Assembly: GCA_963750165.1 (NCBI GenBank)
Contig: CAVVPN010000011.1
Coordinates: 1,664,001 to 1,728,000 of the forward strand
Origin: an uncultured Gemmataceae bacterium
GTDB lineage: Bacteria > Planctomycetota > Planctomycetia > Gemmatales > Gemmataceae
Direction of reading: 5' to 3'
Length of the DNA stretch: 64,000 nucleotides
Shown here: positions 3,561 through 58,364 of the stretch, in pieces
Position numbering within the stretch: position 1 is the stretch's first letter
Layout of the letters: each line of letters starts with the position of its first letter
The notes under the pieces: model-generated
Told to the model about the DNA's origin: nothing
Database searches by the model: none
The model's input: only the letters and a program-made list of their open reading frames with translations
Made by a program: the position numbers and the translations under genes

Positions 3561-4847
3561 ATGCGTGTCGCCATCATCGCGGAAGTGTTCCTGCCCAAGA
3601 TCGACGGCGTCGTCAGCCGGACGTTGAACCTGATCCGGCACCTGGCCCGATCCGGCGACGAGTTGCTCATCGTCTGCCCCGACGCCCGCGGTCTGACCGA
3701 GAGCCCGGCGCCGGTCCTGGCGGTGCCGAGCTTCTCGTTCCCGTTCTACCCCGAGTACCGCATCGGCCTGCCGGATCGGCGGCTGGCTCGCGCCCTGAAG
3801 CGCTTCGCCCCCGATGTGCTGCACTACATCAACCCGTTCGGCTTCGGCTTCCGCTGCCATGACGCGCTGCGGCGCGCGTGTCTGCGGGTGCCGACCGTCT
3901 TCTCGTTCCACACCCTCTACGGCGAGTTCGTCAAGCGCTACAAGGGGCTCGAGCCGCTGTCGCGTCTGCTGTGGTGGCTGACACGCAACTACCACAACCG
4001 CGCCAACTTCAACCTCACAGTCTCGCCGGCCATGCAGGCCGACCTGGCCCGGCGCGGCTTCCACCGCGTCGAGCTGTGGCCGCCGGCCGTGGACAGCGAG
4101 CTGTTCAGCCCCGGCCGCGCCAGCCCAGCGATGCGCGCCCGCCTCACGGGTGGGCGCCCGGAGCGGCCGCTGCTGCTGACCGTCTCACGGCTGGCGCCTG
4201 AGAAGAATGTCGGCTTCCTGGCCGGCGTGATCCGGCAGCTGCCCGGGGTTTGCTTCGCGGTCGTCGGCGACGGCCCGGCCCGGCCGGATCTGGAGCGTGC
4301 CTTCGCCGGCAGCGACACCCGCTTCCTGGGCTACCTGAAGGGGGAAGAGCTGGCGACCGCCTACGCCTCCGCCGACGCCTTCGTGTACGCTTCCGAAACG
4401 GAGACGATGGGCAACGTCGTGCTGGAGGCGATGGCCTGCGGCCGTGCCGTGGTGGTGCCGAACGCGGGCGGCATTCCGAACCTGGTGGCGCACGGGACCA
4501 CCGGCTTCCTGTACCCGCCGCGAGACTTGCCGGAAGCGGTGCGGCAGGTCCGGGCGCTGCTGATGGAAGAGGCGCTGCGGGCCCGCGTCGGCCAGGCCGC
4601 CCGGCTGGCGATTGAGGAGCGCAACTGGGAGCATTCGGTCGGCCGGGTGCGCGAGGTCTACGCCGAGGCGATCCGTTCCGGCAACCCCACGGCCACCTGG
4701 ACCTGGTGCGAGAGCGTGGCTCAGGTCACCATGACCGCCCTGGTGTCCGCGTTCCGGGTGGTGCCCCCCAAGAAGAAACGGCCCGCCCTGGCTCAACCAG
4801 CCGCCGTCCCCCAGCCCGACGACGCCCTCGTATCGGCGCTCGTGTAA
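3561..4847 (+). CDS. GT4 glycosyltransferase, SqdX/MgtA-like
   Basis: N-terminus MRVAIIAEVFLPKIDGVV resembles SqdX (RIALFTETFLPKVDGIV); GT4 signature ETMGNVVLEAMACG; RLAPEKN. Confidence 0.85.
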   Translation: MRVAIIAEVFLPKIDGVVSRTLNLIRHLARSGDELLIVCPDARGLTESPAPVLAVPSFSFPFYPEYRIGLPDRRLARALKRFAPDVLHYINPFGFGFRCHDALRRACLRVPTVFSFHTLYGEFVKRYKGLEPLSRLLWWLTRNYHNRANFNLTVSPAMQADLARRGFHRVELWPPAVDSELFSPGRASPAMRARLTGGRPERPLLLTVSRLAPEKNVGFLAGVIRQLPGVCFAVVGDGPARPDLERAFAGSDTRFLGYLKGEELATAYASADAFVYASETETMGNVVLEAMACGRAVVVPNAGGIPNLVAHGTTGFLYPPRDLPEAVRQVRALLMEEALRARVGQAARLAIEERNWEHSVGRVREVYAEAIRSGNPTATWTWCESVAQVTMTALVSAFRVVPPKKKRPALAQPAAVPQPDDALVSALV

Positions 4848-4865
4848 TCCCGACTTCGCACGCAC

Positions 4866-4922
4866 CCCGTGTATGTTTCGCGCGGCCTCGACAGCGCGCG
4901 AAACATACACGGGCCTGTTTTT
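4866..4922 (+). terminator. 19-bp perfect hairpin followed by a T-rich tract; terminator or REP-like element
   Basis: cccgtgtatgtttcgcgcg (4866-4884) / cgcgcgaaacatacacggg (4895-4913), then cctgttttt. Confidence 0.6.
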
Positions 4923-5145
4923 CGGGCTGCTCCAGTGGCGGCACGGGATGTGCTTTCTCCACTCATATTCGCGGCCGCTGTTTCCAGGTCGGCGGTTGAC
5001 CAGGCCCCCGCTTCACTCGGCCGCAGATGGTTCGAAAATAGGCCCGGCAGCGGCGGCTTGTGGAGTCCTGCCCAGCGACGGCTCGTTCCCGCTTCCTCCC
5101 TGCCGCAACCGCACCATCCACCGACGGTCCAGAGAGGTCGATTTG

Positions 5146-42354: not shown

Positions 42355-42993
42355 ATGGCGAACTCCTTCACCTGTCCGAAGTGCGACAAATTGTTGAAGC
42401 TCAGTCAGTCCGTGGCGGCCGGCACCAAGGTCAAGTGCCCGCAGTGCGCCACCATCTTCGCCGCCCCGGGGGACGGCGATGAGGACGCTGACGTGGCGCC
42501 GCCGCGGCAGCGCTCTCGCCGCGACGAGGAGTTCTACGAGGACGAGGACGACCGCCCACGGCCGCGGCGCAAGAAGAAGAAGGCGGGCGGCGGTATGCCG
42601 GGCTGGGCGCTCGGCTTGATTATCGGCGGCCCCATCCTGCTGGTGCTGCTCATCGTCGGCGGCATCGTGCTATTCCTCATACTCAGCGGTAATGCGGCAC
42701 GGCAGCAGCTCATCGGCCGCTGGGAGGTGACGAACCACCCGGGGTTGGGGACCCAGGTGTATGAGTTCACCTCTGACGGCCGGATCAAGATCAACACCTC
42801 GGTCAGGCAGCAGGGCATCAACGTCGGCGGCCTGGATATGAGCGGAACCTACCGCTGGGTGGACAACCAGACGATTGAGATCACATTGCTGGGGATCCCG
42901 CTCCCCCACACGGTCAACCGCAGCGGCGACACACTCACCCTGACCCCGCAGGCCCCCGGCAGCCGGGCGACGACCTTACGCCGCCTACGCTGA
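42355..42993 (+). CDS. Zn-ribbon/single-TM membrane protein, paralog 2
   Basis: Same architecture as 41622..42329, with near-identical N-terminus and TM. Confidence 0.78.
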   Translation: MANSFTCPKCDKLLKLSQSVAAGTKVKCPQCATIFAAPGDGDEDADVAPPRQRSRRDEEFYEDEDDRPRPRRKKKKAGGGMPGWALGLIIGGPILLVLLIVGGIVLFLILSGNAARQQLIGRWEVTNHPGLGTQVYEFTSDGRIKINTSVRQQGINVGGLDMSGTYRWVDNQTIEITLLGIPLPHTVNRSGDTLTLTPQAPGSRATTLRRLR

Positions 42994-44619
42994 GGCGGGG
43001 TGTAAAAAGCCGGTGCAGAACGCCCGCAGTTCCGCCTCCGGGTACAGGCAGAAGGAGTAATCGCGCCGCCCGAGCACCTCACGCAATCGTAGTTCCGCTT
43101 GCAGACGCTCCAGACGTGCCTGCGCGACCTCGACTTCCCTGGCCACGAAGGGCCGTAATTGCTCCCCGACCTGTCGCAGCGTGCGAAAGCGCTCGGCCCG
43201 CTCCTGGCGCGTGGCGGCCGTCTGCGCGGCCAGCCCCCGTTGACGTTCCGCCAGCGCCGTTGCCGCCGCGACCGCTCCGACCAGGTGCCGCTGTGGGTTC
43301 CAGTACAGGTCGCGCAACTGGCGCTCCGCCTGGTGCGCGTCCGCCGGCGCCGCCGGCGGCCGCGGCAGCGGCAACAGCAGCGTCGCCGACAGCACCAGGA
43401 AACGCGGCGGCTCGGCGCCGTAAAAGCGCCGGCTGATCTCGTCGGTCAATTCGTCGTACTTGCCGCCGCCGATGCCGTGAATGAACAGGTCGCACAGGAA
43501 CAACCGCGCGAACAGCGTGTTGGTCAGCGCCCGGCTGCGGATTTTCAGACCGTGCTGCTCCAGCTCGCGCAGCGCCGCCACCGTCTGTTGCGGCTCCGCG
43601 GCCGGCAGCGTCGGCCACTCCTCAGTGCCGACGCGCAGCGCAATACGGTCGGCGTGGCGCCGCGCCAGCAGTCGGCCGCGCCGCTCCTGACCGCTGCGCC
43701 ACGCCCAGAACGGCGCCTCCAGCCAGTCGCCCTGGCGTGCCAGGTCCGGCACCGGATGGTTGCGGCTATGGATGTCGTTGGCTCGGCGGTAGTCGTTGAC
43801 GACGGCGTTGTAGGTCGCGTGGAAGTGCGGCAGTTCGCCCAGCAGGTGAGCCGCGAACCAAGCGAACGGCTCCGTCCGGCAGACGGCGCTGACGGGGACT
43901 TCGAGGTTGTGACAGCCCCAGCGCCGCTCCCAGGCCCGCCGCGCCGCCGCCAAACGTTCGCCCAGCAGCGGCGTCCGCCGTGCCTGCCGCCGGGCCTCCT
44001 CCCAGAAGACCGGCAGCAGCGGTTGATAGGGCCAGTCGCGGAAGAACGGGGCGGCGCGCTCCGGCAGGCTGGCGAACAGCTCCTCATCGCGGATGGTGCG
44101 CTCTTCGTAGGGCACCTCGCTGGCCCAGTGGTCGAAGGAGACGGACTGGACATGCGGCACGACCTGGGGCAGATATTCCAGCCTGCCAACTCCTCGGCGG
44201 GGTAGAAAACCTACCCCATGTGCGGGGATTTTCAGCAGGCTGCTCTTGTTGGTGTCGTTATCGACGACGAGGTTGACCGGCACGAGGCCGTGGACACGGG
44301 CCAGGCCCTGCAGCGCGAAGTTCTTGACCCAGACGCCGGGGTGAAACAACTCCGGCTGATGGCCGGCCATCACCACCGCATCGCGGTCCACGTCCGGCAC
44401 CGGTTCGCCAGCCTGGCTAAGGTACGCGGTGGCAGCGTCCAGCACCGCCCGCCGTGCCTGTCGGCGCAACTCCGGCCACGGCCGGCCCAGCAGCGTGCTG
44501 GTGGCGCAGTCCAGCAGCCGGCGGTTGTCCGCCAGGACGGCGCCGACCGTGGCCAGCGGCGGCTCGGCCAGAACAGCGCCGTCCGCGGCGGGCGCTCGCA
44601 GGGGGTGTGCCTGGTTCAC
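42985..44619 (-). CDS. Conserved hypothetical protein, BshC/WbqC-like HUP-fold candidate
   Basis: GTG at 44619 overlaps the GT2 stop (GTGA); motifs AGHQPELFHPGVWVK, VVDND, RALTNT, HGIGGGKYD, coiled coil, YSFCLYP. Confidence 0.7.
   Translation of the reverse strand: MNQAHPLRAPAADGAVLAEPPLATVGAVLADNRRLLDCATSTLLGRPWPELRRQARRAVLDAATAYLSQAGEPVPDVDRDAVVMAGHQPELFHPGVWVKNFALQGLARVHGLVPVNLVVDNDTNKSSLLKIPAHGVGFLPRRGVGRLEYLPQVVPHVQSVSFDHWASEVPYEERTIRDEELFASLPERAAPFFRDWPYQPLLPVFWEEARRQARRTPLLGERLAAARRAWERRWGCHNLEVPVSAVCRTEPFAWFAAHLLGELPHFHATYNAVVNDYRRANDIHSRNHPVPDLARQGDWLEAPFWAWRSGQERRGRLLARRHADRIALRVGTEEWPTLPAAEPQQTVAALRELEQHGLKIRSRALTNTLFARLFLCDLFIHGIGGGKYDELTDEISRRFYGAEPPRFLVLSATLLLPLPRPPAAPADAHQAERQLRDLYWNPQRHLVGAVAAATALAERQRGLAAQTAATRQERAERFRTLRQVGEQLRPFVAREVEVAQARLERLQAELRLREVLGRRDYSFCLYPEAELRAFCTGFLHPASA
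44164..44219. repeat. Degenerate REP-like dimer inside a coding sequence
   Basis: ctggggcagatattccagcctgcc-aactcctc-ggcggggtagaaaacctaccccat (17/24 complementary). Confidence 0.5.
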
Positions 44620-45371
44620 CGACAGGTTCCCCGCGGCCAGGCGTCGCAGCAAGCGGTCGGCAGCGTGACGTGTCCGGCCCGGCTCTCCTCTTGCAGGGCA
44701 TCGCAGATGACCTGGCGGTAATGCGCCAGCCGCTGTTCCGCGTTGTCGAACACGCCGCCGAAGGCTCGCGTCGGGTCGAGGTAAACGCGCGGCACCCCCA
44801 CTTCCTTGACGCGCAGCCCCTGCCGCGCCGCCCGCACCCACAGTTGCAACGGCATGCCCCAGCCGGTTTCGGTGATGTGCAGACGGGCCAGCGCCTCGCG
44901 GCGGTACGCCTTGAAGCCGCAGAAGGCGTCCGTCAGGTGCAGGCCGAGCAGGTCGTTGAGTTCCGCGGTGATGGTCTGGTTGATGCGGCGGCGATCCTCC
45001 GGCGGCAGCGTGTCCTGGCGGAAGTCGCGCAGGTAGCGGCTGCCGGAGACGATGTCGGCGTCGTGGATGGCCTCCAGCAGCACGGGGATGCGAGCGGGCT
45101 CGTGCTGGCCGTCGCAGTCCATGGTGACGAGCACGTCCGCGTCGCTGCGCAGGCCGTGAGCGAACGCGGAGATCAGGGCGGCGCCGTAGCCGCGGTTCTG
45201 CCCGTGTGTGATGATGTCCAGGTCGCGCTGCCGGGCCAGCAGTTCGCCGGTGCGGTCGGTGGAGCCGTCGTTGATGACGAGGATGTGCGGGCTGTAGCGG
45301 CGGACCTCGTCGAGGACGTGTTCCAGGTGCCGTTCTTCGTTGAAGACGGGGATCGCGGTTAGCAATTTCAT
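44616..45371 (-). CDS. GT2 glycosyltransferase (DPM1-like)
   Basis: IPVFNEE, INDGSTD, NRGYGAA, MDCDGQH, VSGSRY, TDAFCGFKAY. Confidence 0.92.
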   Translation of the reverse strand: MKLLTAIPVFNEERHLEHVLDEVRRYSPHILVINDGSTDRTGELLARQRDLDIITHGQNRGYGAALISAFAHGLRSDADVLVTMDCDGQHEPARIPVLLEAIHDADIVSGSRYLRDFRQDTLPPEDRRRINQTITAELNDLLGLHLTDAFCGFKAYRREALARLHITETGWGMPLQLWVRAARQGLRVKEVGVPRVYLDPTRAFGGVFDNAEQRLAHYRQVICDALQEESRAGHVTLPTACCDAWPRGTCR

Positions 45372-45457
45372 GTGGCACCCACCTTTCGCGAATGAAGAAA
45401 TTAAGAGGGCGAAATCATTCTAACCAGGGTCAAAGGGATGTCAAACAACCGGAAAAA

Positions 45458-45765: not shown

Positions 45766-46212
45766 ATGAGACAGACGCGCTGGCAACCGCTCAACCCACT
45801 GTGGAACCAGCTGCAGCAGTTCCAGAACGAGATGAACCACCTGTTCGCGCGCTGGAACGACAACGACCGCGGCGTTGCCGCTGGTAGCTACCCGCCGGTC
45901 AACGTGCTGGAGGACGGCGACACCATTTTGGTTGAGGCGGAGGTGCCCGGCCTGGACCTGAAGGACCTGGAGATTTACGTCACGGGCACCAACCAGCTGA
46001 CGCTCAAGGGCGAGCGCAAGCCGTTGGCGCCGGACAAGGGCACGCGGCACCGGCAGGAGCGCGGCTTCGGCACGTTCGTGCGCGTGTTGACGCTGCCGTT
46101 TGCGGTGGACGCCAACAAGGTGGACGCCCGTCTGGAGCAGGGCGTGTTGCAGATCAAGCTGGCCAAGCACGAGTCGGCGCGGCCGCGCAAGATCGTCGTC
46201 AAGGGCGAGTGA
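45766..46212 (+). CDS. Hsp20/alpha-crystallin small heat shock protein
   Basis: YPPVNVLED, AEVPG, LTLKGER, ERGFGTFVR.LTLP, GVLQIKLAK. Confidence 0.93.
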   Translation: MRQTRWQPLNPLWNQLQQFQNEMNHLFARWNDNDRGVAAGSYPPVNVLEDGDTILVEAEVPGLDLKDLEIYVTGTNQLTLKGERKPLAPDKGTRHRQERGFGTFVRVLTLPFAVDANKVDARLEQGVLQIKLAKHESARPRKIVVKGE

Positions 46213-46247
46213 GCGAACCCCCAGAACCCCAACCGAGGAGCAAAACC

Positions 46248-46640
46248 ATGGCCGAACAAAATGCCCTGAAGCAGCGAACGAACGCGGGCCAGGCGGAGGC
46301 GACGCGCGGCGGCCAGTATTTCACGCCGAGCGTGGACATCTACGAGACGGACGGCGAACTGACGCTGTGCGCGGACGTGCCGGGCGTCAAGCCGGCGGAC
46401 GTGGACCTGCGTTACGAGCGCGGCGAACTGATCCTGCATGCGAAGGTGACACCGCGACCGCAGCAGGGCCAGTACGTCCACTACGAATACGAGGAGGGCG
46501 ACTTCTACCGCGTCTTCCAGATTCACGAATCGATTGACGCCTCGCGCATCGAGGCGGAGTGCAAGCAAGGCGTGCTGACGGTGCATCTGCCCAAGGCCGA
46601 GTCCGCCAAGCCGCGCCAGGTGCAGGTGCGCGGCGAGTAG
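46248..46640 (+). CDS. Hsp20/alpha-crystallin small heat shock protein
   Basis: PSVDIYET, ADVPGV, FYRVFQI, GVLTVHLPK; RBS GAGGAG. Confidence 0.93.
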   Translation: MAEQNALKQRTNAGQAEATRGGQYFTPSVDIYETDGELTLCADVPGVKPADVDLRYERGELILHAKVTPRPQQGQYVHYEYEEGDFYRVFQIHESIDASRIEAECKQGVLTVHLPKAESAKPRQVQVRGE

Positions 46641-47810: not shown

Positions 47811-48905
47811 ATGAAAATCTCACAGATCCTGGCCATCATCCTGGCGCTGAGTTGCCTCTCCCTCCCTGCTTGCCAGACACGCGAGGAGCAGTCCGAATCG
47901 GGGAACCAGAAGATCGTGGTCACCAGTCCTCTGGAAAAGGACGTCATCCTCACCCAGCCGTACGTCTGCCAGATCCACTCGCAGAACCACATCAAGGTCA
48001 AAGCGTTGATGGGCGGGTATCTCGAGGAGATCCTGGTCAAGGAGGGCCAGGGGGTGCGAAAAGGCTCTTTGATGTTCAAGATCCTGCCGATCCTTTACAA
48101 GGCAAATATGGACGCCGAGATGGCCGAGGCCAAGATCGCGGAGCTGGAACTCAAGTTCACCGAGAAGTTGGCGAAGCTAAACACAGTCTCTGAGAATGAA
48201 GTGGCACTGTACAGGGCCAAACTGACAAGGGCCGAGGCCAGGGCGGAGAAGGCGAAGGCCGAATGGAAATTTACCAAGATCGAGGCACCGTTCGACGGCA
48301 TCGTCGATCGTCTGCACGAGCAACTCGGCAGCCTGATCAAGGAAGGGGATGTCCTCACGACCCTGTCCGACAACAGCGGGATGTGGGTTTATTTCAACGT
48401 GCCCGAGGCCCACTACATCAAGTACCAGAAAGAGCAGGGTCAGCTTAAGGAAGACCCGCGCATCGAACTGCGGCTGGCGGGCGGCAGCAAGTTCTCGTAC
48501 AGCGGCAAGTTCTATACGATCGAGGCCGTCTTTAACAACGAGACCGGGACCGTCCCCTTCCGCGCGGATTTCCCGAACCCGAACCGCGTGCTGCGGCACG
48601 GCATGACCGGCAACGTGTTGATCCACCGCACGTTGAGCAACGCCATCCTCATCCCGCAGCGGGCGACGTTCGAGATTCTCGACAGGCGCTACGTTTTCGT
48701 CGTCAATCGAGAGGGCAAGGTACATCAGCGCGAGATCGTCATCCAGAACGAATTGCAAGACATCTATGTCATCAAGAGCGGACTGAGCCTGGGGGATCGG
48801 TTCATTTTCGAGGGAGTTCGACAGGTCCGCGACGGTGATAAGATCGAGTACGAGTTCCGTCCCCCGGAACAGGTGCTTGCCCACCAGAACTTTCACGCGG
48901 AATAG
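47811..48905 (+). CDS. RND efflux periplasmic adaptor (MFP), lipoprotein
   Basis: Lipobox LPAC; VKEGQGVRKG.LMFKI; IEAPFDG; ETGTVPFRADFPNP; IPQRA. Confidence 0.93.
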   Translation: MKISQILAIILALSCLSLPACQTREEQSESGNQKIVVTSPLEKDVILTQPYVCQIHSQNHIKVKALMGGYLEEILVKEGQGVRKGSLMFKILPILYKANMDAEMAEAKIAELELKFTEKLAKLNTVSENEVALYRAKLTRAEARAEKAKAEWKFTKIEAPFDGIVDRLHEQLGSLIKEGDVLTTLSDNSGMWVYFNVPEAHYIKYQKEQGQLKEDPRIELRLAGGSKFSYSGKFYTIEAVFNNETGTVPFRADFPNPNRVLRHGMTGNVLIHRTLSNAILIPQRATFEILDRRYVFVVNREGKVHQREIVIQNELQDIYVIKSGLSLGDRFIFEGVRQVRDGDKIEYEFRPPEQVLAHQNFHAE

Positions 48906-48956: not shown

Positions 48957-51900
48957 ATGTTCACCAAAATTCTCTACCGGCCGGCGCTGGCGATCGTGAT
49001 CTCCATCATCCTCTTGTTCCTGGGGACGCTGGGGATCAAGACCCTACCGACAGCTCAGTTCCCCGACATCGCGCCGCCGACCGTTCGCGTCGGGATTTCC
49101 TATCCCGGTGCCAGTGCCAATGTCCTGGTCAATTCGGTCCTGGTGCCGATGGAGCGAGCCATCAACGGCGTCCAGAACATGCGTTACATGGCCTCCTCCG
49201 CCACCAGTGCCGGTGAGGCAGCGATCACCATCTACTTCGAGCCGGGCACGGACCCCAACATCAACGCCGTGAACGTGCTCAACCGGGTCAACATCGTGCG
49301 GAGCCAGCTCCCCGAGTTGGTGCAGCGCGAGGGGATCATCGTCCTGCCGGTCGTGCCAAGCATGCTGATGTATGTGAATATTTACAGCACGGATACCAGC
49401 GTCGATCAGAAATTCCTTTACAACTTCGCCAACACAAACGTCATGCCCGAGATCCAGCGGATCCAGGGGATGGGTATCCCCTGGAATCTCGGCAACCGCG
49501 CCTATGCGATGCGGATCTGGCTGAATATCGACCGCTTGCGCGCCTACAAGCTGTCCAGTGAGGACGTCATGAAGGCCCTGGCGGAGACGAGCGTGATTGG
49601 CTCGCCCGGGCGACTCGGCCAGGCCACGGGCCACAGGTCGCAATCCCGCGAGTACGTCCTGACCTGGATCGGGCGCTATAACAAAGTGGAGCAGTATGAA
49701 AACATCGTTTTGAAGGCCAGTCCCAAGGGGGAGATCCTGCGGCTCAAGGACGTGTGTGGCACCTGGGATGAAAACGGCGTCCGGAAGACTCCCGGCATCG
49801 AGTTGGGCTCGTCGATGTTCGACATTTACTCGGACATCAATGGTTACCCTGCGTGTTCCATCATTCTCAAACAAACTCCCGGCTCCAACGCCTCCGCCGT
49901 TATTGAGGAAATCAAGACGCACCTCAAGGAGATCAAGAAGGAATCGTTTCCTCCCGGCATGGACTACGAATTCGCCTACGACGTTTCCAGCTTTCTGGAC
50001 GCCTCCATCGAAAAGGTGCTGCATACCCTGCTGGAGGCGTTCATTTTGGTGTCGCTGGTGGTCTACCTGTTCCTCGGGGATTTTCGTTCCACGCTGATCC
50101 CGACCCTGGCGGTGCCGGTGTCGCTGATCGGCACCTTTTTCTTCCTCAAGTTGTTCGGTCTCTCCATCAACCTGATCACGCTCTTCGCGATGGTGCTGGC
50201 GATCGGGGTCGTGGTGGACGATGCGATCGTGGTGGTGGAGGCGGTGCATGCCAAGATGGCCGAGAAGCATCTCGGCCCCTATCAGGCGACCATGGAGGTG
50301 CTGCACGAGATCTCCGGCGCGATCATCGCCATCACGTTGGTGATGACCTCCGTCTTCATTCCGGTGACCTTCGTGCCCGGACCGGCCGGCGTCTTTTACC
50401 GCCAGTTCGGCATCACCATGGCCACGTCCATCATCCTCTCCGGTCTGGTGGCCCTGACGCTGACGCCCGTACTCTGTGCGATGATTCTCAAACCCCACAC
50501 CCACGCCAACACCCACACCAGCAACCACAACCACACGAGTCCCGTGAAAAAGAAGCGCGGACTCCTGGTCATGCTGCTGTTTTTTATTGGTGGGATGCTG
50601 CTCTTGGCAGGCATCACTTATGTGGCGTACCACCTGTGGGGATTAGCCGGCCTGCCGATCGCCCTGGTGCCCTTTCTGCAGCGCCCCTTTGACCGCGTTG
50701 TGACCTTCGTCACGAGCGTTTATGGTGGGATCCTGCGAGGGATCGTCACCCGCCGCGTGCTGACCATGGCCGTCGTCGGGGGCTTTGCCGCCGGCATTGG
50801 GGTCGTCAGCACGCAGATCTCGGCTGGTTTTATCCCGGGCGAGGACCAGGGCATCATCTACGCGGTCCTCCAGACGCCGCCGGGCTCCACCCTCGAGTAC
50901 ACCAACGGCAAGGCCCAGGAACTCGAGAAGGTTGCCGAAGAACTCGAAGACGTCACCTCCGTCACTTCGATCGCCGGTTACGAGATCCTGACGGAAGGCC
51001 GCGGCTCGAACGCGGGAACCTGTGTCATCAACCTGAAAGAATGGTCCAAGCGCGATCGCACCGCGCGGCAGATCATCGAACAACTCGAAGAAAAATGCCG
51101 CCGGTTGTCCAACGTGAAGCTCGAGTTCTTCGAACCCCCCGCGGTCCCCGGCTTCGGCGCTGCCGGGGGTTTCTCCATCAACGTCCTCGACAAGACCAAC
51201 TCGGCCACGCCTGACTACAAGAAGCTCGGCGAGGTGACCGACACGTTCATGAAAGCCTTGAAGAAACGCAAGGAAGTGAAGAACCTGTTCACCTTCTATA
51301 CCGCCGGCTACCCGCAGTACGAGCTGAACATCGACATCGCCCGGGCCATGCAGAAGGGCGTGTCGGTCAAGAAGGCCCTGGACAACCTGAACATCTACGT
51401 CGGCAGCACCTGGGAGCAAGGCTTCATTCTCTTCAACCAGTTCTACAAGGTTTACGTCCAGGCCGCGCCGGAGTTCCGGCGTTTCCCCAAGGATCTGGAC
51501 AACATTTTCGTCAAAAGCGACAGCGGGCAAATGGTTCCCTACTCCTCGTTCATGACGATCAAGGAAAAGCAGGGATTGAACGAAATCAATCGCTATAACA
51601 TGTATCCCACCGCCCCCATTCAAGGTGCACCAGCTCCCGGCTACAGCACCGGTCAAGCCATCCAGGCGGTCAGGGAGGTTGCCGTTCAGACGCTGCCACA
51701 CGGTTACGCCATCGGCTGGTCAGGTCTCTCGTACGACGAGGAAAAAAAGGGGAACGAGGCGGTTTTTATCTTCCTCATCGTCGTCGCCTTCGTCTATCTG
51801 GTCCTGGTCGCGCAGTACGAGAGTTTTCTGTTGCCGCTGGCCGTCATCCTGTCCCTGCCGATCGGGATCTTCGGTTCCTTTTTCCTCCTGCAGGCCCTGG

Positions 51901-52823
51901 GTTTGGCCAACGACGTCTGGGCCCAAATTGGTCTGATCATGCTGGTCGGCCTGCTGGGTAAGAATGCGATCCTGATCGTCGAATTCGCGGTGCAGCGGCG
52001 CCGGGAGGGCCTGCCCATCCACGAGGCAGCCATCGAAGGAGGAAAATTGCGCTTCCGGCCGATTCAGATGACCTCCTTCGCCTTCATCGCCGGCCTCATT
52101 CCGTTGGTCATTGCCACCGGCGCCGGGGCGATCGCCAACCGCACCATTGGCACCACGGGGGTGGGCGGGATGCTCACGGGCACCGTGGTCGGCGTCCTGG
52201 TGATTCCCGGCCTTTATTACATTTTCGCCCGCATCGCCGACGGGAAAAAAATCCTCCGGGAGGAGGTGGATGAACCGCTCAGTGAGGTTCTCGATCACAA
52301 ACCATTTGAGGCGCTTCCGGAAGTGACGGCCGGTGAGATCGAGAGTCTGCTGAACTACCTCGACGCCCGCGGCGGTCGGGACGACCTCTCCCACATCGCC
52401 GCCCAGACCCACCGTGACTTCCGCCAACTCCTCATCGTGGCCCAGGCCGCCGAGTTGCTCGATTTCGTCACCACAGCGCCAGGCCAGGTCGTGGTCAACG
52501 ACGAGGGCGACCGCTTCAGCAAGGCGAGCCCCGCGGATCGCCAGGCCATCTGGCGTGAGCACATCCTTCAGTTGCGGCTGTTCAAGGAGACCCAGGAGAT
52601 TCTCCGCCGTGCGGGCGGTCTCATCGACAGCGATCTGTTGCGGGAAATCTTCATCCTGAACCTGCCCGGGGTGAACTTCGACAAAGGTGTCGCCACCTTG
52701 ATCGACTGGGCCAGATACGGCGACCTGTTCGCCTACGACGACTCAACCGGGAAGATCTCAACGCGGGGAGCGGGTCACACCCTGTTCACGTCAGCCGAGA
52801 GGCCGCCGGGAGAGCGTCACTAG
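48957..52823 (+). CDS. RND efflux permease (HAE1/AcrB-like) with an internal insert and a C-terminal AAA_assoc_C-like domain
   Basis: QFPDIAPP.V, YPGASA, VVDDAIVVVE, PGEDQG, GKNAILIVEF, RFRPIQMT; 1288 aa versus the usual ~1050; tail AAELLDF...LIDWARYGDLFAYD. Confidence 0.92.
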   Translation: MFTKILYRPALAIVISIILLFLGTLGIKTLPTAQFPDIAPPTVRVGISYPGASANVLVNSVLVPMERAINGVQNMRYMASSATSAGEAAITIYFEPGTDPNINAVNVLNRVNIVRSQLPELVQREGIIVLPVVPSMLMYVNIYSTDTSVDQKFLYNFANTNVMPEIQRIQGMGIPWNLGNRAYAMRIWLNIDRLRAYKLSSEDVMKALAETSVIGSPGRLGQATGHRSQSREYVLTWIGRYNKVEQYENIVLKASPKGEILRLKDVCGTWDENGVRKTPGIELGSSMFDIYSDINGYPACSIILKQTPGSNASAVIEEIKTHLKEIKKESFPPGMDYEFAYDVSSFLDASIEKVLHTLLEAFILVSLVVYLFLGDFRSTLIPTLAVPVSLIGTFFFLKLFGLSINLITLFAMVLAIGVVVDDAIVVVEAVHAKMAEKHLGPYQATMEVLHEISGAIIAITLVMTSVFIPVTFVPGPAGVFYRQFGITMATSIILSGLVALTLTPVLCAMILKPHTHANTHTSNHNHTSPVKKKRGLLVMLLFFIGGMLLLAGITYVAYHLWGLAGLPIALVPFLQRPFDRVVTFVTSVYGGILRGIVTRRVLTMAVVGGFAAGIGVVSTQISAGFIPGEDQGIIYAVLQTPPGSTLEYTNGKAQELEKVAEELEDVTSVTSIAGYEILTEGRGSNAGTCVINLKEWSKRDRTARQIIEQLEEKCRRLSNVKLEFFEPPAVPGFGAAGGFSINVLDKTNSATPDYKKLGEVTDTFMKALKKRKEVKNLFTFYTAGYPQYELNIDIARAMQKGVSVKKALDNLNIYVGSTWEQGFILFNQFYKVYVQAAPEFRRFPKDLDNIFVKSDSGQMVPYSSFMTIKEKQGLNEINRYNMYPTAPIQGAPAPGYSTGQAIQAVREVAVQTLPHGYAIGWSGLSYDEEKKGNEAVFIFLIVVAFVYLVLVAQYESFLLPLAVILSLPIGIFGSFFLLQALGLANDVWAQIGLIMLVGLLGKNAILIVEFAVQRRREGLPIHEAAIEGGKLRFRPIQMTSFAFIAGLIPLVIATGAGAIANRTIGTTGVGGMLTGTVVGVLVIPGLYYIFARIADGKKILREEVDEPLSEVLDHKPFEALPEVTAGEIESLLNYLDARGGRDDLSHIAAQTHRDFRQLLIVAQAAELLDFVTTAPGQVVVNDEGDRFSKASPADRQAIWREHILQLRLFKETQEILRRAGGLIDSDLLREIFILNLPGVNFDKGVATLIDWARYGDLFAYDDSTGKISTRGAGHTLFTSAERPPGERH

Positions 52824-53160: not shown

Positions 53161-53180
53161 GGGCTTCAAGGACGGTGCAG

Positions 53181-54857
53181 ATGAACCTCTTAGTGCGATT
53201 TTCGCGCACAACGCGTGTGAAGCAAGTGCTTGCGAGAGCGATCACTTGCTGCATGCTCCTGGTGCTGCCGGCCTGTGCAATCCCCAATCTCCGTCAGGCG
53301 CAGTCGGGGCCCGACCTTCCGGCAAGCTTTTTCAACGGAGCGACCAGCCCGGAAAACTCAGCTCAGCTCGGGATCGAAGCGTTTTTCAATGATCCGGTGC
53401 TTACGGGCTTGATCGACCAAGCGGCGGTCGGCAATCGGGAGCTGAAAATCCTGAATGAGGAGGTCCAGATCGCCAGAAACGAGATTCTGGCGAGGCAGGG
53501 GACGTACCTTCCCTTTGTCGGTTTCACGGGCGCTGCGAGTCTGGACCAACTCAGCACCTTCACGCTTCCTGGTGCCGGCGTACACGACGACCCGTATCTC
53601 GACGGAAAGTTCCTTCCCAATCCGCTGCCGAATTACCTGCTCGGCCTCAACTTGTTCTGGCGGATCGACATCTGGAGGGAACTGCGCAATGCCAGGGACG
53701 CGGCGGCGCAGCGCTACGTCGCCGCCGTGGAGAAACGGAACTTCTTCGTGACCCGTCTGGTCGCAGAGATTGCCGAGAATTATTACGGGCTGATGGCGCA
53801 CGACAAACGGCTTGAGAATCTGGATAAAATCATCGAGCTGCAGAAGAAAAGCCTCAAGACCGCCGAGGCCTTTATGGAAGCAACGAAGATCACCGCGTTC
53901 CCTGTCCGGCGTTTCCAGGCCGAGATTCGCAAGAACCAGAGTCAAAAGCTGATCGTTAAGCAGGAGATCATCGAGGTCGAGAACCGTATCAACTTCCTCG
54001 TCAATCGCTACCCGCAGCCTGTCGAACGCATGACTGCGCGGTTCTACGATCTGAACTTTCCGCTGTTCATCGGGGTGCCCGCACAGCTGCTTCAGAACCG
54101 ACCCGACATCCGCCAGGCCGAGCGCGAGCTGGAGGCTGCCGGGCTCGACGTGAAGGTCGCCCGGGCCCACTTCTTTCCCAAGCTGGACATCAACGGCGGC
54201 GTTGGCTACGAGGCCTTCAACCCCAAATATCTGTTCTGGACTCCGGACGCCTTGATTGGAAGCGTTGCTGGTGGACTGGTCGCGCCGGTGATCAATTTCA
54301 AAGCGATTCAGGCCGAGTACCTCAGCGCGAACGCCAAACAATTGCAGAGCGTCTACAACTACCAGCGCGTAATCCTCAACGCTTTCACCGAGGTTGTCAC
54401 CCGCGTGTCCATGGTGCAGAACTACAGCCAGAGCATCGGGATCAGGAAGCAGCAGGTGGAAGCGCTTGAGGACGCCGTCACCCAGGCCACCAACCTTTTT
54501 AATTTTCCCAGGCCGGGGGAGAAAAACCCCGTCGATTACCTGGACGTGCTATTGGCCCAGCGTGACCTCTGGGGGGCGAGATTGGAATTGATCGACACCA
54601 AACAGCAGCAACTGGCTGCCTTCGTGAACGTCTATCAAGCCCTGGGCGGTGGCGTCTCCGTATTGAGTCACCTGCAGGACGGCACGCATACGCCAGTTCC
54701 TTGCAATCAGACCAAGGAATCTGAGGCGACACTGCCACCGCCGACGGTGATGCAGATGTCGTACGCGCCGCCGACCGTGCCGACCTTCCCGAGCATCGAA
54801 GGAACCCCGGCTACTGCGACGGCGCGGTTACTGCCTCCGACTTTTCTGCCACCATAA
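53181..54857 (+). CDS. TolC/NodT-family outer membrane efflux lipoprotein
   Basis: Lipobox LPAC; FFNDPVLTGLIDQA..GNRELK; PAQLLQNRPDIRQAE; YQALGGG; Pro/Thr tail; start uncertain (53175-53253). Confidence 0.92.
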   Translation: MNLLVRFSRTTRVKQVLARAITCCMLLVLPACAIPNLRQAQSGPDLPASFFNGATSPENSAQLGIEAFFNDPVLTGLIDQAAVGNRELKILNEEVQIARNEILARQGTYLPFVGFTGAASLDQLSTFTLPGAGVHDDPYLDGKFLPNPLPNYLLGLNLFWRIDIWRELRNARDAAAQRYVAAVEKRNFFVTRLVAEIAENYYGLMAHDKRLENLDKIIELQKKSLKTAEAFMEATKITAFPVRRFQAEIRKNQSQKLIVKQEIIEVENRINFLVNRYPQPVERMTARFYDLNFPLFIGVPAQLLQNRPDIRQAERELEAAGLDVKVARAHFFPKLDINGGVGYEAFNPKYLFWTPDALIGSVAGGLVAPVINFKAIQAEYLSANAKQLQSVYNYQRVILNAFTEVVTRVSMVQNYSQSIGIRKQQVEALEDAVTQATNLFNFPRPGEKNPVDYLDVLLAQRDLWGARLELIDTKQQQLAAFVNVYQALGGGVSVLSHLQDGTHTPVPCNQTKESEATLPPPTVMQMSYAPPTVPTFPSIEGTPATATARLLPPTFLPP

Positions 54858-55590: not shown

Positions 55591-55800
55591 ATACGGCGTG
55601 CCATAGGGGTTTTGTCAGTGGTTCTCACGGAGCGATGGACCGACGTGCTCCGGGGCTGCAGCCTGACGTTTCGCGTTCGCGCCACCCCTTGCCCACTGGT
55701 TATCGGCGCGCAAGCCGCCACCTCGACATCGAACTCCCGCAGCCGCGCCACCTGCGCTTGTTGTGTCTCCGTCCGCTGCGCCGGCCTGGCGCTGACCGCG

Positions 55801-55899
55801 CTGGGCGTCGTGGATGGATTCTCCCCGAAGGGGGTCGAGGACGAGGGAGAGATCAGTTGGCGGAAGGACTTCCTGCGGAAGCTCGGGTACAAGCTGTAA
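55801..55899 (+). pseudogene. 3' fragment of an adenosine-specific kinase (DUF355-like) gene
   Basis: [32 protein letters not shown] is the characteristic C-terminus; the upstream part is missing. Confidence 0.65.
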
Positions 55900-55919
55900 G
55901 CGGAAAAGACAGGTGGACC

Positions 55920-56630
55920 ATGACCGCCGCTGACCAGGATCAGCCACGGAAAGGGATCAATCAGCGCCGCTTGATCGGTTTCCTGGTGGCCGTGCCGGTG
56001 TACTTTGCCCTGTTCATGTTTCTGCCTGCCGGCACCTGGGCGTGGACGAAGGGCTGGCTCTTTGTCGGGGTGTTCCTCGGTACGCTGGCCGTCGTCGGTG
56101 TGTATCTCTGGCGAGTGAATCCCGAAGTCGTGGTCGCCAGGACCGGCTCGCAGAAAGGAACCAAGCGCTGGGACAAGATTCTGGTCCCTATCCTGCTGGC
56201 GGTGGTGTACGCCATCATTCCCGTTGCGGCGCTTGACGACGGGCGCTTTCACTGGTTTCCAGTTCCCTGGTGGGTCTGTGGCGTCGGCTACGTTCTGTTC
56301 CTTGTCGGCATGGGCATTCTTACCTGGGCGGAAGCCGTCAACAAGTTCTTCGAGGTCACGGTACGCATCCAGACGGATCGAGGTCAGAAGGTGATCGACA
56401 CCGGCCCCTACACCATCGTGCGGCATCCCGGATATGTCGGCGGCATCCTCTTCTTCGTGGGGACGGCCTTGTGCCTGGGGTCGGTTTGGGCGCTGGTTCC
56501 TGCGGGCCTGGCCTCTGCCCTGTTGATCCTGCGGACGCAGTGGGAAGATCAGACGTTGCAGGCCGAGTTGGCGGGGTACAAGGAGTACGCCCAGCAGGTC
56601 CGCTATAAACTCATCCCTGGCGTGTGGTGA
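55920..56630 (+). CDS. Isoprenylcysteine carboxyl methyltransferase (ICMT/PEMT) family membrane protein
   Basis: NKFF..TVRIQTDRGQKVIDTGPYTIVRHPGY...RTQWEDQTL..EL.GY.EY..VRYKLIPGVW. Confidence 0.9.
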   Translation: MTAADQDQPRKGINQRRLIGFLVAVPVYFALFMFLPAGTWAWTKGWLFVGVFLGTLAVVGVYLWRVNPEVVVARTGSQKGTKRWDKILVPILLAVVYAIIPVAALDDGRFHWFPVPWWVCGVGYVLFLVGMGILTWAEAVNKFFEVTVRIQTDRGQKVIDTGPYTIVRHPGYVGGILFFVGTALCLGSVWALVPAGLASALLILRTQWEDQTLQAELAGYKEYAQQVRYKLIPGVW

Positions 56631-57785: not shown

Positions 57786-58364
57786 GTGGGGCGCACACGA
57801 GAAACCTCTGAAGCCCGGCAACGCATCCTTGAAACAGCCGGCCGGCTGTTCTACCAGGAAGGGGTGCGGGCGGTAGGCATCGACCGGATCATCGCCGAGG
57901 CTGGGGTCGCTAAGATGAGCCTATACAAGCACTTTCCGTCCAAGGACGACCTGATCCTGGCCGTCCTGAAGCATCGAGAAGAAAGCGTATTGGCGTTCTT
58001 CCGTTCGGCGATGGAGCGGCAGAGCAAGAAGATGAAGAACCCGCTGCGGGCCTTCTTCGCCGCCCTGAAGGAGTGGTTCGAGACGCCGGACTTCCGGGGC
58101 TGCGCCTTCCAGAACGCCGCCGTCGAACTGGCGGACGCCGCCCACCCCGGCACCGAGTTCGTCCGTGGGCACAAGCAGCGATTCGGCGAGTTCCTGCGTG
58201 GCCTGGTCGAAGAAGCGGTCGGCAAGTCGGCGAAGGTCACCCCCGCCGTGGCCCTGCTGGTTGAAGGGGCCATCGTGACCGCCGTGATCCAGGGCAAGCC
58301 CGACGCCGCCGACGTGGCCCGTGACGCTGCTCTGAAGCTGGTGGCCGAAGGGAAGGGCGGCTAA
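57786..58364 (+). CDS. TetR/AcrR family transcriptional regulator
   Basis: RQRILETA..LFYQEGVRAVGIDRIIAEAGVAKMSLYKHFPSKDDL; FRGCAFQNAAVE. Confidence 0.94.
   Translation: MGRTRETSEARQRILETAGRLFYQEGVRAVGIDRIIAEAGVAKMSLYKHFPSKDDLILAVLKHREESVLAFFRSAMERQSKKMKNPLRAFFAALKEWFETPDFRGCAFQNAAVELADAAHPGTEFVRGHKQRFGEFLRGLVEEAVGKSAKVTPAVALLVEGAIVTAVIQGKPDAADVARDAALKLVAEGKGG

Follow-up and report, generated by a model that had tools for sequence, protein, structure and literature searches.

The window analysed here, a stretch of 64,000 nucleotides from an uncultured Gemmataceae bacterium (assembly GCA_963750165.1, contig CAVVPN010000011.1, positions 1,664,001 to 1,728,000 of the forward strand), encodes a drug-type efflux permease of the resistance-nodulation-division (RND) superfamily whose reading frame continues, behind the twelfth transmembrane segment (TM12), into an AAA_assoc_C domain (PF09821). 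The fusion is real, conserved and evolutionarily labile. An even chance is given to the reading that the tail of about 170 residues is a conserved, autonomously folding, acidic module, probably derived from ATP-binding cassette (ABC) transporters, with an optional docking or regulatory role in the cytoplasm by which a soluble partner would tune the pump.

Reading frame, permease body and tail domain

The frame at 48957..52823 (+ strand) is free of stop codons and encodes one protein of 1288 amino acids (P0001). Its ACR_tran match in Pfam covers residues 4-1090 (E 1.3e-277, 924.1 bits against a cut-off of 28), and 198 amino acids follow (residues 1091-1288), in agreement with the original prediction, a note made from the letters of the window alone, which had described an RND frame running unbroken past the last transmembrane segment. 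Residues 1146-1261 match AAA_assoc_C at E 1.8e-17 (64.4 bits against a cut-off of 27.6, profile positions 2-119 of 119; 69.2 bits in the genome-wide search), so that the tail was named correctly and the proposed architecture search returned both domains above their cut-offs. The start given for the tail stretch, 52240, lay one base out of codon phase; the stretch itself is real and its in-frame start is 52239. Pfam found no ABC_tran domain in P0001, which is therefore not a NitT/TauT ATP-binding protein. By known RND topology the tail, coming after TM12, is on the cytoplasmic side.

The permease body belongs to the HAE1 type, scoring 975.9 bits on TIGR00915 (cut-off 940.35), and stays below the cut-off of the multidrug subfamily model NF000282 RND_permease_1 (1092.7 bits against 1250). 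Membership in the MmpL group is not indicated, the MMPL Pfam match being weak and partial (27.4 bits, residues 356-510) and the TIGR00833 score being 25.3 bits against a cut-off of 874.7. In alignments to the CmeB, MexB and AcrB chains, the proton-relay positions in TM4, TM10 and TM11 (D407, D408, K940, R971 and T978 in AcrB) are occupied by D421, D422, K1002, R1032 and T1039, which are invariant or at least 90% conserved among 30 aligned family members (see below); the relay is intact, as had been predicted.

A second peculiarity of the body is an insertion of about 60 residues between TM6 and TM7, near which, at about residue 520, the match of the NCBIfam RND models breaks into two stretches. 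A His-rich stretch, HTHANTHTSNHNHTS, makes up its first part and about 40 hydrophobic residues its second (hydropathy maximum 2.3, residues 537-555); the insertion is kept in all 30 aligned family members with a mean identity of 59%. Judged by its length, the hydrophobic part may form a membrane hairpin.

Recurrence of the fusion

A search with the tail as query, limited to proteins of RND length, returned 35 clusters (90% identity), one of which is the window's own; every one of them (35/35) has both PF00873 and PF09821, and the tail identity is 57-74%. The records come from NCBI, JGI and ENA, and the source names, where given, point to Gemmataceae. Thirty of the 35 clusters, with an overall identity of 70-83%, were aligned as the family used throughout, after five fragments of 764-1106 amino acids had been dropped.

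In the window's own taxonomic family, PF09821 was found in 27 of 121 genomes (the window's genome, G000, counted) and on an RND frame in seven. The tail sits on orthologues of the window's pump in G000, G063 and G072 (73-77% identity), and on another pump, about 22% identical to the window's, in G006, G009, G012 and G022. This second tail-bearing pump is of the metal-type CusA/CzcA subfamily (HME), as shown by the PF09821-bearing proteins P0192 and P0208, which reach 879 and 868 bits on TIGR00914 against a cut-off of 701; a metagenome-assembled genome from the Thermoguttaceae also bears an HME-type fusion (L008). The sample of 401 genomes from the phylum held PF09821 in 24 (G000 counted) and no frame with RND and PF09821 except that of G000; the six longest or oddest PF09821 frames of this sample were all ABC_tran plus AAA_assoc_C by Pfam, some of them over-extended.

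Chance and mis-assembly are excluded, since the same in-frame junction recurs in 34 other clusters and in genomes G063 and G072, and RND and ABC contexts share one domain boundary, [FV]E[AP]LP[DE]. The one observation compatible with an assembly or frameshift artefact came from the junction check in reads that the original prediction had suggested: in the sequencing runs listed, soil runs of small share (best 0.11) with no RNA run among them, no read or contig bridged nucleotide 52239 with the required 31 or more letters on both sides. The assembled soil reads gave short contigs of relatives, one of which, 153 nucleotides long, is identical to the window within the tail (52347-52499). With the independent assemblies in place of bridging reads, an artefact is refuted in practice and its probability is negligible.

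The fusion is not unique, recurring in Gemmataceae and on a second RND subfamily. The statement that no RND fusion with AAA_assoc_C had been described stands: searches of the literature on AAA_assoc_C/PF09821, on RND with winged helix and on Planctomycetes with RND found no account of an RND pump bearing this or another winged-helix domain in the cytoplasm, the accessible part of the PF09821 literature (PMC3688454) deals with ABC transporters only, and the portion available of a Chem Rev review (PMC8277102) contains nothing about cytoplasmic C-terminal domains in RND permeases. Since public databases already list proteins with both Pfam labels, the architecture has been on record without being remarked upon.

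Predicted fold and charge of the tail

An AlphaFold2 model of the tail, built from a 96-row alignment, has a mean predicted local distance difference test score (pLDDT) of 89.5 and a predicted template-modelling score (pTM) of 0.80, so that the structure check suggested with the original prediction returned a folded tail. The pLDDT lies at 94-99 over tail residues 21-170 and at about 61 over tail residues 1-20, which belong to the linker. The predicted elements run helix-strand-helix-helix-strand-strand, two linking helices, and again helix-strand-helix-helix-strand-strand; the tail is confidently predicted to be a tandem winged helix on a flexible linker of about 25 residues. The model agrees with the winged-helix fold that PMC3688454 assigns to the AAA_assoc_C family by HHsearch. 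Within the family, mean pairwise identity falls from 82-85% in the pump body to 70.1% in the domain, 66.5% in the linker and 22% in the last 18 residues.

A profile search found no sequence relatives of the tail in the PDB (best E 0.08, MntR), and a Foldseek search of the model against the PDB gave nothing at E<=0.001. An exhaustive structural search, in which the best background match typically reaches Z 7-8, gave as best whole-domain matches N.BspD6I (Z 10.3, 153 aligned residues, root-mean-square deviation 4.0), FokI (Z 10.0) and BrxA (Z 9.3), followed by 3bhw (Z 9.0), BpuJI (Z 8.5) and SspB (Z 8.3). Single winged-helix units of the tail resemble MarR-type regulators at Z about 7.

These matches bear on the reading that the tail is a DNA-binding tandem winged helix, by which the pump would serve as a transcription regulator or nucleoid anchor tethered to the membrane. 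The recognition modules of FokI, N.BspD6I and BpuJI and BrxA of the BREX system share with the tail a whole-domain similarity over 145-153 residues (Z 8.5-10.3), and the efflux operon has no regulator gene directly upstream. The sequence identity to these proteins is 8-14%, their Z is slightly above background and the tail is acidic, so that a shared function is not implied. The domain is in fact acidic nearly everywhere: net charge ranges from -2 to -17 in 30/30 HAE1 tails of the family, and over the wider sets it is positive in 1/42 HAE1 tails, 0/11 HME tails, 0/18 Gemmataceae ABC tails, 8/140 other ABC tails and 1/51 stand-alone domains. The helices at the recognition position (tail residues 61-73 and 147-160) have one or two basic residues each, and a TetR-family gene lies nearby (57786..58364). 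A role in DNA binding is accordingly held to be quite improbable, and the acidity of the domain together with the scarcity of basic residues in its recognition helices speaks for binding of a protein or ligand instead.

Orthologues with and without the tail

A whole-pump search of the 121 family genomes found 13 full-length orthologues without the tail, 70-79% identical to the window's pump, with alignments that run out at query residue 1110-1127. Each frame closes 0 to about 60 residues past the conserved linker, ADGRKLL.DE.DEPLSE, and in 9 of the 13 loci an outer-membrane factor (OMF) gene comes next. As the tail-less orthologues retain the linker, it is part of the pump, and the domain was attached after it; as orthologues this close lack the tail, transport would not need it.

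A pump tree computed from pump-body residues only, with 32 tail-bearing and 13 tail-less rows, requires the tail label to change 6 times. Well-supported branches force at least 4 of these changes, and the approximately unbiased (AU) test rejects the tail-bearers as a single clade (p 0.0015); an earlier tree that included the tail columns, with 4 changes, is superseded. Since the HAE1 tails form a single clade, one gain of the tail followed by several losses is the simpler reading, though not a proven one, compared with several gains. Behind the tail-less genes the remnant search, made by tblastn with 7 tails and by an unfiltered profile search, brought up only the shared linker (best domain E 0.72).

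The same patchiness is what would be seen if the tail were a nearly neutral passenger that landed behind the pump gene, was tolerated and has been lost lineage by lineage. On the pump tree, orthologues with the tail stand among orthologues without it, and the RND fusion occurs in a mere 7/121 of the sampled family genomes. Such a passenger would hardly keep a mean identity of 70% over the domain against 22% for the unconstrained C-terminal end, nor a predicted fold with a pLDDT of about 95, and the domain has been retained on two RND subfamilies and in 34 other 90%-identity clusters. This explanation is regarded as unlikely.

CusA/CzcA-type pumps of Planctomycetota, 63-68% identical to P0192, likewise include tail-bearing and tail-less forms (loci L005, L006, L010 and L011 compared with L008, L013 and L016-L018), and are as patchy as the HAE1 orthogroup.

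Origin of the tail and other carriers of AAA_assoc_C

Besides the pump tail, the window's genome contains a single PF09821 copy, which forms the C-terminus of a 447-amino-acid ABC ATPase (ABC_tran plus AAA_assoc_C) on contig 3; the pump tail is 48% identical to this copy over 159 residues, with a common start boundary, FEALPE. In a quick maximum-likelihood tree covering 144 sequences of the domain, HAE1 and HME tails each form a clade (Shimodaira-Hasegawa approximate likelihood-ratio support 99 for both), nested in a clade (97) with the ABC tails of Gemmataceae. This nesting supports a minimum of one capture from the ABC tails of planctomycetes, and the pump tail was probably taken, as far as the tree tells, from a planctomycetal NitT/TauT-like ABC ATPase. 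The HAE1 and HME clades are not sisters on the tree, and the AU test does not reject a joint clade (p 0.456), by which two independent captures are not demonstrated; a single capture followed by transfer between the pump families is compatible with the test.

Outside RND pumps the domain keeps varied company. A tail search of 1.84 billion representative sequences found 440 proteins at E<=0.001; of the 32 scanned by Pfam, 14 were ABC_tran plus AAA_assoc_C, six C-terminal RND fragments, 11 the domain alone, and one had Ig-like domains besides. Two of the 14 have an additional PTS_EIIA_2 domain (P0052 and P0058), a combination also present at locus L046, and one starts with MgtE_N. Among longer proteins, a profile search gave 916 matches at E<=1e-5, the best 120 of which comprise 25 RND fusions, one protein of NACHT type and otherwise ABC ATPases, mostly with MgtE_N. 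The NACHT-type NTPase (P0189, 1080 amino acids, from a metagenome; PF05729, SAV_2336 N-terminal domain) carries two C-terminal copies of AAA_assoc_C, so that the domain is not confined to transporters.

Among the ABC loci, the ATPase of G152 and G019 directly follows a permease with two BPD_transp_1 halves. G391 (L065:2616-5743) and G451 (L067:5133-8286) have a permease with two transmembrane domains (double-TMD permease), a nucleotide-binding domain (NBD) protein of 252-254 amino acids and a separate AAA_assoc_C gene of 187-200 amino acids; this separate gene after the NBD marks AAA_assoc_C as an autonomous module. G311 (L066:4982-5557) has an AAA_assoc_C gene that stands alone, with no ABC gene beside it. 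The AAA_assoc_C ABC ATPase of the window's genome (L001/L003; contig 3, 3390518-3391861) is an orphan between the genes of a uroporphyrinogen decarboxylase and a GNAT acetyltransferase, and the double-TMD permease (L050) lies apart from it on contig 4 (1072630-1074369).

The original prediction had suggested that efflux might be coupled to an ABC importer, that is, that the tail docks the pump onto a NitT/TauT-like ABC system, through its NBD or its permease. The stand-alone domain of the split systems presumably associates with ABC partners, and the window's genome does have both an AAA_assoc_C ABC ATPase and a double-TMD permease. The co-occurrence test covered six tail-bearing genomes, G022 being left out, and found the double-TMD permease in 2/6 (G000 and G012); G006, G009, G063 and G072 (completeness 95, 99, 91 and 88%) gave no match to this query, nor did they hold a second, ABC-type PF09821 copy. 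In the window's genome the ATPase and the permease are unlinked to each other and to the pump. The result argues against obligatory coupling of efflux to an importer, and docking onto an ABC system is considered very unlikely.

Proposed role of the tail

The reading preferred here is that of an accessory docking or regulatory module, to which the regulatory company of the domain (EIIA_2, MgtE_N) leads. On its flexible tether the tail would bind a soluble partner, either a protein or a small ligand, and so tune the pump. The signal received would not be the transported substrate, given that metal-type pumps, drug-type pumps and an ABC system all bear the domain. One candidate partner is an EIIA-like protein of the nitrogen-related phosphotransferase system (PTS-Ntr), proposed because some ABC ATPases carry AAA_assoc_C followed by EIIA_2; the window's genome has three PTS_EIIA_2 loci, two on contig 3, near 181.6 kb and 2,093.7 kb, and one on contig 12, near 541 kb.

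A further-reaching version, doubtful but worth stating, takes AAA_assoc_C for a portable 'signal socket' that, fused or free, would plug the same cytosolic regulator (for example of PTS-Ntr EIIA type) into ABC importers and into drug and metal RND exporters, so that uptake and efflux would be gated jointly by one nutrient or energy signal. If true, a canonical tripartite RND pump would for the first time be seen to carry a folded regulatory domain in the cytoplasm.

Alternatively, the tail may be a clustering or localisation device, which by self-association or by binding of a cytoskeletal or polar factor would place or bundle the pump trimers. By analogy, the closest precedent in the RND superfamily is the C-terminal domain of MmpL3, MmpL11 and MmpL13, which the available text of a review (PMC10171966) describes as cytoplasmic, non-essential and serving partner binding, localisation and regulation, with localisation, protein-protein interaction and phosphoregulation named for MmpL3; the same text calls cytoplasmic C-terminal appendages rare in canonical RND proteins. 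The window's tail, too, is a cytoplasmic C-terminal appendage on an RND-superfamily transporter and is likewise dispensable in orthologues, and several weak Foldseek matches (O-methyltransferases) contain winged-helix domains as dimerisation modules. The precedent differs in that the MmpL3 domain is, according to the accessible part of PMC10171966, predicted to be disordered and is regulated by phosphorylation, whereas the pump tail is predicted to be folded and belongs to a named Pfam family. A two-copy complex prediction with tail residues 21-180 (scores 0.33, 0.00 and 0.00) speaks neither for nor against self-association. A need for localisation is less obvious for ABC ATPases and for the separate gene of ABC operons, which have the same domain. 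A localisation device is held to be rather unlikely.

Several points weigh against a docking or regulatory module. The top whole-domain structural neighbours (the FokI, N.BspD6I and BpuJI recognition domains and BrxA) are DNA binders, and Z values of 9-10 are only slightly above the typical best background. The link to EIIA comes from a minority architecture, 2/32 Pfam-scanned proteins and one locus. The patchy absence of the tail in close orthologues would also be expected of a weakly useful or neutral passenger, and no tail remnant was found 3' of the 13 tail-less genes. The docking or regulatory role is one that we infer, with its partner at candidate level. With these reservations, the cytoplasmic regulatory or docking module put forward by the original prediction is still the best reading of the tail.

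Efflux operon and neighbouring genes

The pump gene is part of a cluster of four genes on the + strand, encoding an RND adaptor, the RND permease, an OMF and a small lipoprotein-like protein (Table 1). The adaptor scores 198.7 bits on TIGR01730 RND_mfp (cut-off 94.9) and matches HlyD_D23 and HlyD_3 in Pfam; the OMF matches Pfam OEP at E 5.3e-38 and reaches 190.7 bits on TIGR01845, below the cut-off of 210.05. The order adaptor, RND permease, OMF is also found in G063 and G072.

Table 1. Coordinates of the pump, its parts and the other genes of the operon (window positions; residues are those of P0001)
Feature	Positions	Strand	Residues or size	Basis and remarks
Periplasmic adaptor (membrane fusion protein)	47811..48905	+	364 aa	TIGR01730, Pfam; lipoprotein-like N-terminus
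RND permease body, HAE1/AcrB type	48957..52226	+	1-1090	ACR_tran, TIGR00915
TM6-TM7 family-specific insertion	50493..50681	+	~513-575	NCBIfam match break, hydropathy
Cytoplasmic linker after TM12, ADGKKILREEVDEPLSEVLDHKP	52227..52304	+	1091-1116	Conserved, low pLDDT
AAA_assoc_C domain, predicted tandem winged helix	52305..52766	+	1117-1270	Pfam match = nt 52392-52739
Unconserved C-terminal end and stop codon	52767..52823	+	1271-1288	pLDDT 55-59
Outer-membrane factor	53175..54857	+	560 aa from GTG	Pfam OEP; true start uncertain
Small predicted lipoprotein P0004, possibly YceK/YidQ-like	55069/55144 (internal ATG)..55590	+		Lipobox IAGC

The fourth gene had been predicted to encode a YceK-like lipoprotein downstream of the OMF gene, which may be a fourth component. 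A lipobox is present, in keeping with a lipoprotein. The ESM-Atlas clusters nearest to P0004 bear the name YceK/YidQ (score 0.96), and 38% of their members have PF07119; P0004 itself had no match in Pfam, even at E<=10, and none in NCBIfam. A search of the window's genome with the PF07119 (DUF1375) profile matched on contig 4 only. Of the two other tail-bearing orthologous loci, one (L020, G072) has a homologue of P0004 and in the other (L019, G063) none was found. The G072 homologue, 65% identical, lies on the minus strand between the RND and OMF genes (L020, contig 2, about nucleotides 4732-5058 of the locus), so that the P0004-like gene shifts its position, from behind the OMF gene in the window to the RND-OMF gap in G072, and stays with the operon.

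Just 5' of the operon are two tandem HSP20 genes, 45766..46212 and 46209..46640 (+); no regulator gene lies directly 5' of the adaptor gene or between it and the HSP20 genes. A 797-amino-acid open frame at 42985..45378 (-) matched no Pfam family at E<=0.001. Downstream of the operon follow the gene of a PEMT/ICMT-like membrane methyltransferase, 55635..56630 (+), and the TetR-family regulator gene mentioned above, also on the + strand.

Comparison with known systems and significance

With the tripartite AcrB, MexB and CmeB pumps the window's pump shares a full ACR_tran body, a TIGR00915 score above cut-off, the proton relay, and an adaptor and OMF in the operon. It differs from them by about 198 extra cytoplasmic residues with a predicted folded tandem winged helix, by the TM6-TM7 insertion of about 60 residues and by its score below the NF000282 cut-off.

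In the ABC importer ATPases MalK (with EIIA-Glc), MetN and ModC, C-terminal domains are regulatory. The likely mode of the tail, by analogy, would be the same: a signal from the cytosol would be received by an additional cytoplasmic domain placed after the energising part. The link of MalK to EIIA is echoed by the EIIA_2 fusions of AAA_assoc_C; the fold is TOBE or NIL in those ATPases, as against the predicted winged helix in the tail.

The Nrt/Ssu/Tau-like ABC system whose ATPase bears AAA_assoc_C is known from the bioinformatic work of PMC3688454, and its description there, with a double-TMD permease directly upstream of the ATPase, matches loci seen here in Planctomycetota. It has in common with the pump the same domain, the same boundary and 48% tail identity; the difference lies in the carrier, which in the window is a proton-driven RND pump without ABC_tran.

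Canonical RND pumps are described as having no cytoplasmic domains. As the carriers are environmental Planctomycetota, mainly Gemmataceae, the interest of the fusion is mechanistic and evolutionary, not clinical. If the tail is regulatory, a folded, conserved yet optional module on both drug-type and metal-type pumps would place efflux under post-translational control from within the cell, a mode that has been little explored. For a Pfam domain of unknown function, the fusion amounts to a natural experiment, in which the same module is found on two mechanistically unrelated classes of transporter, fused or as a separate gene, and in orthologues with and without it.

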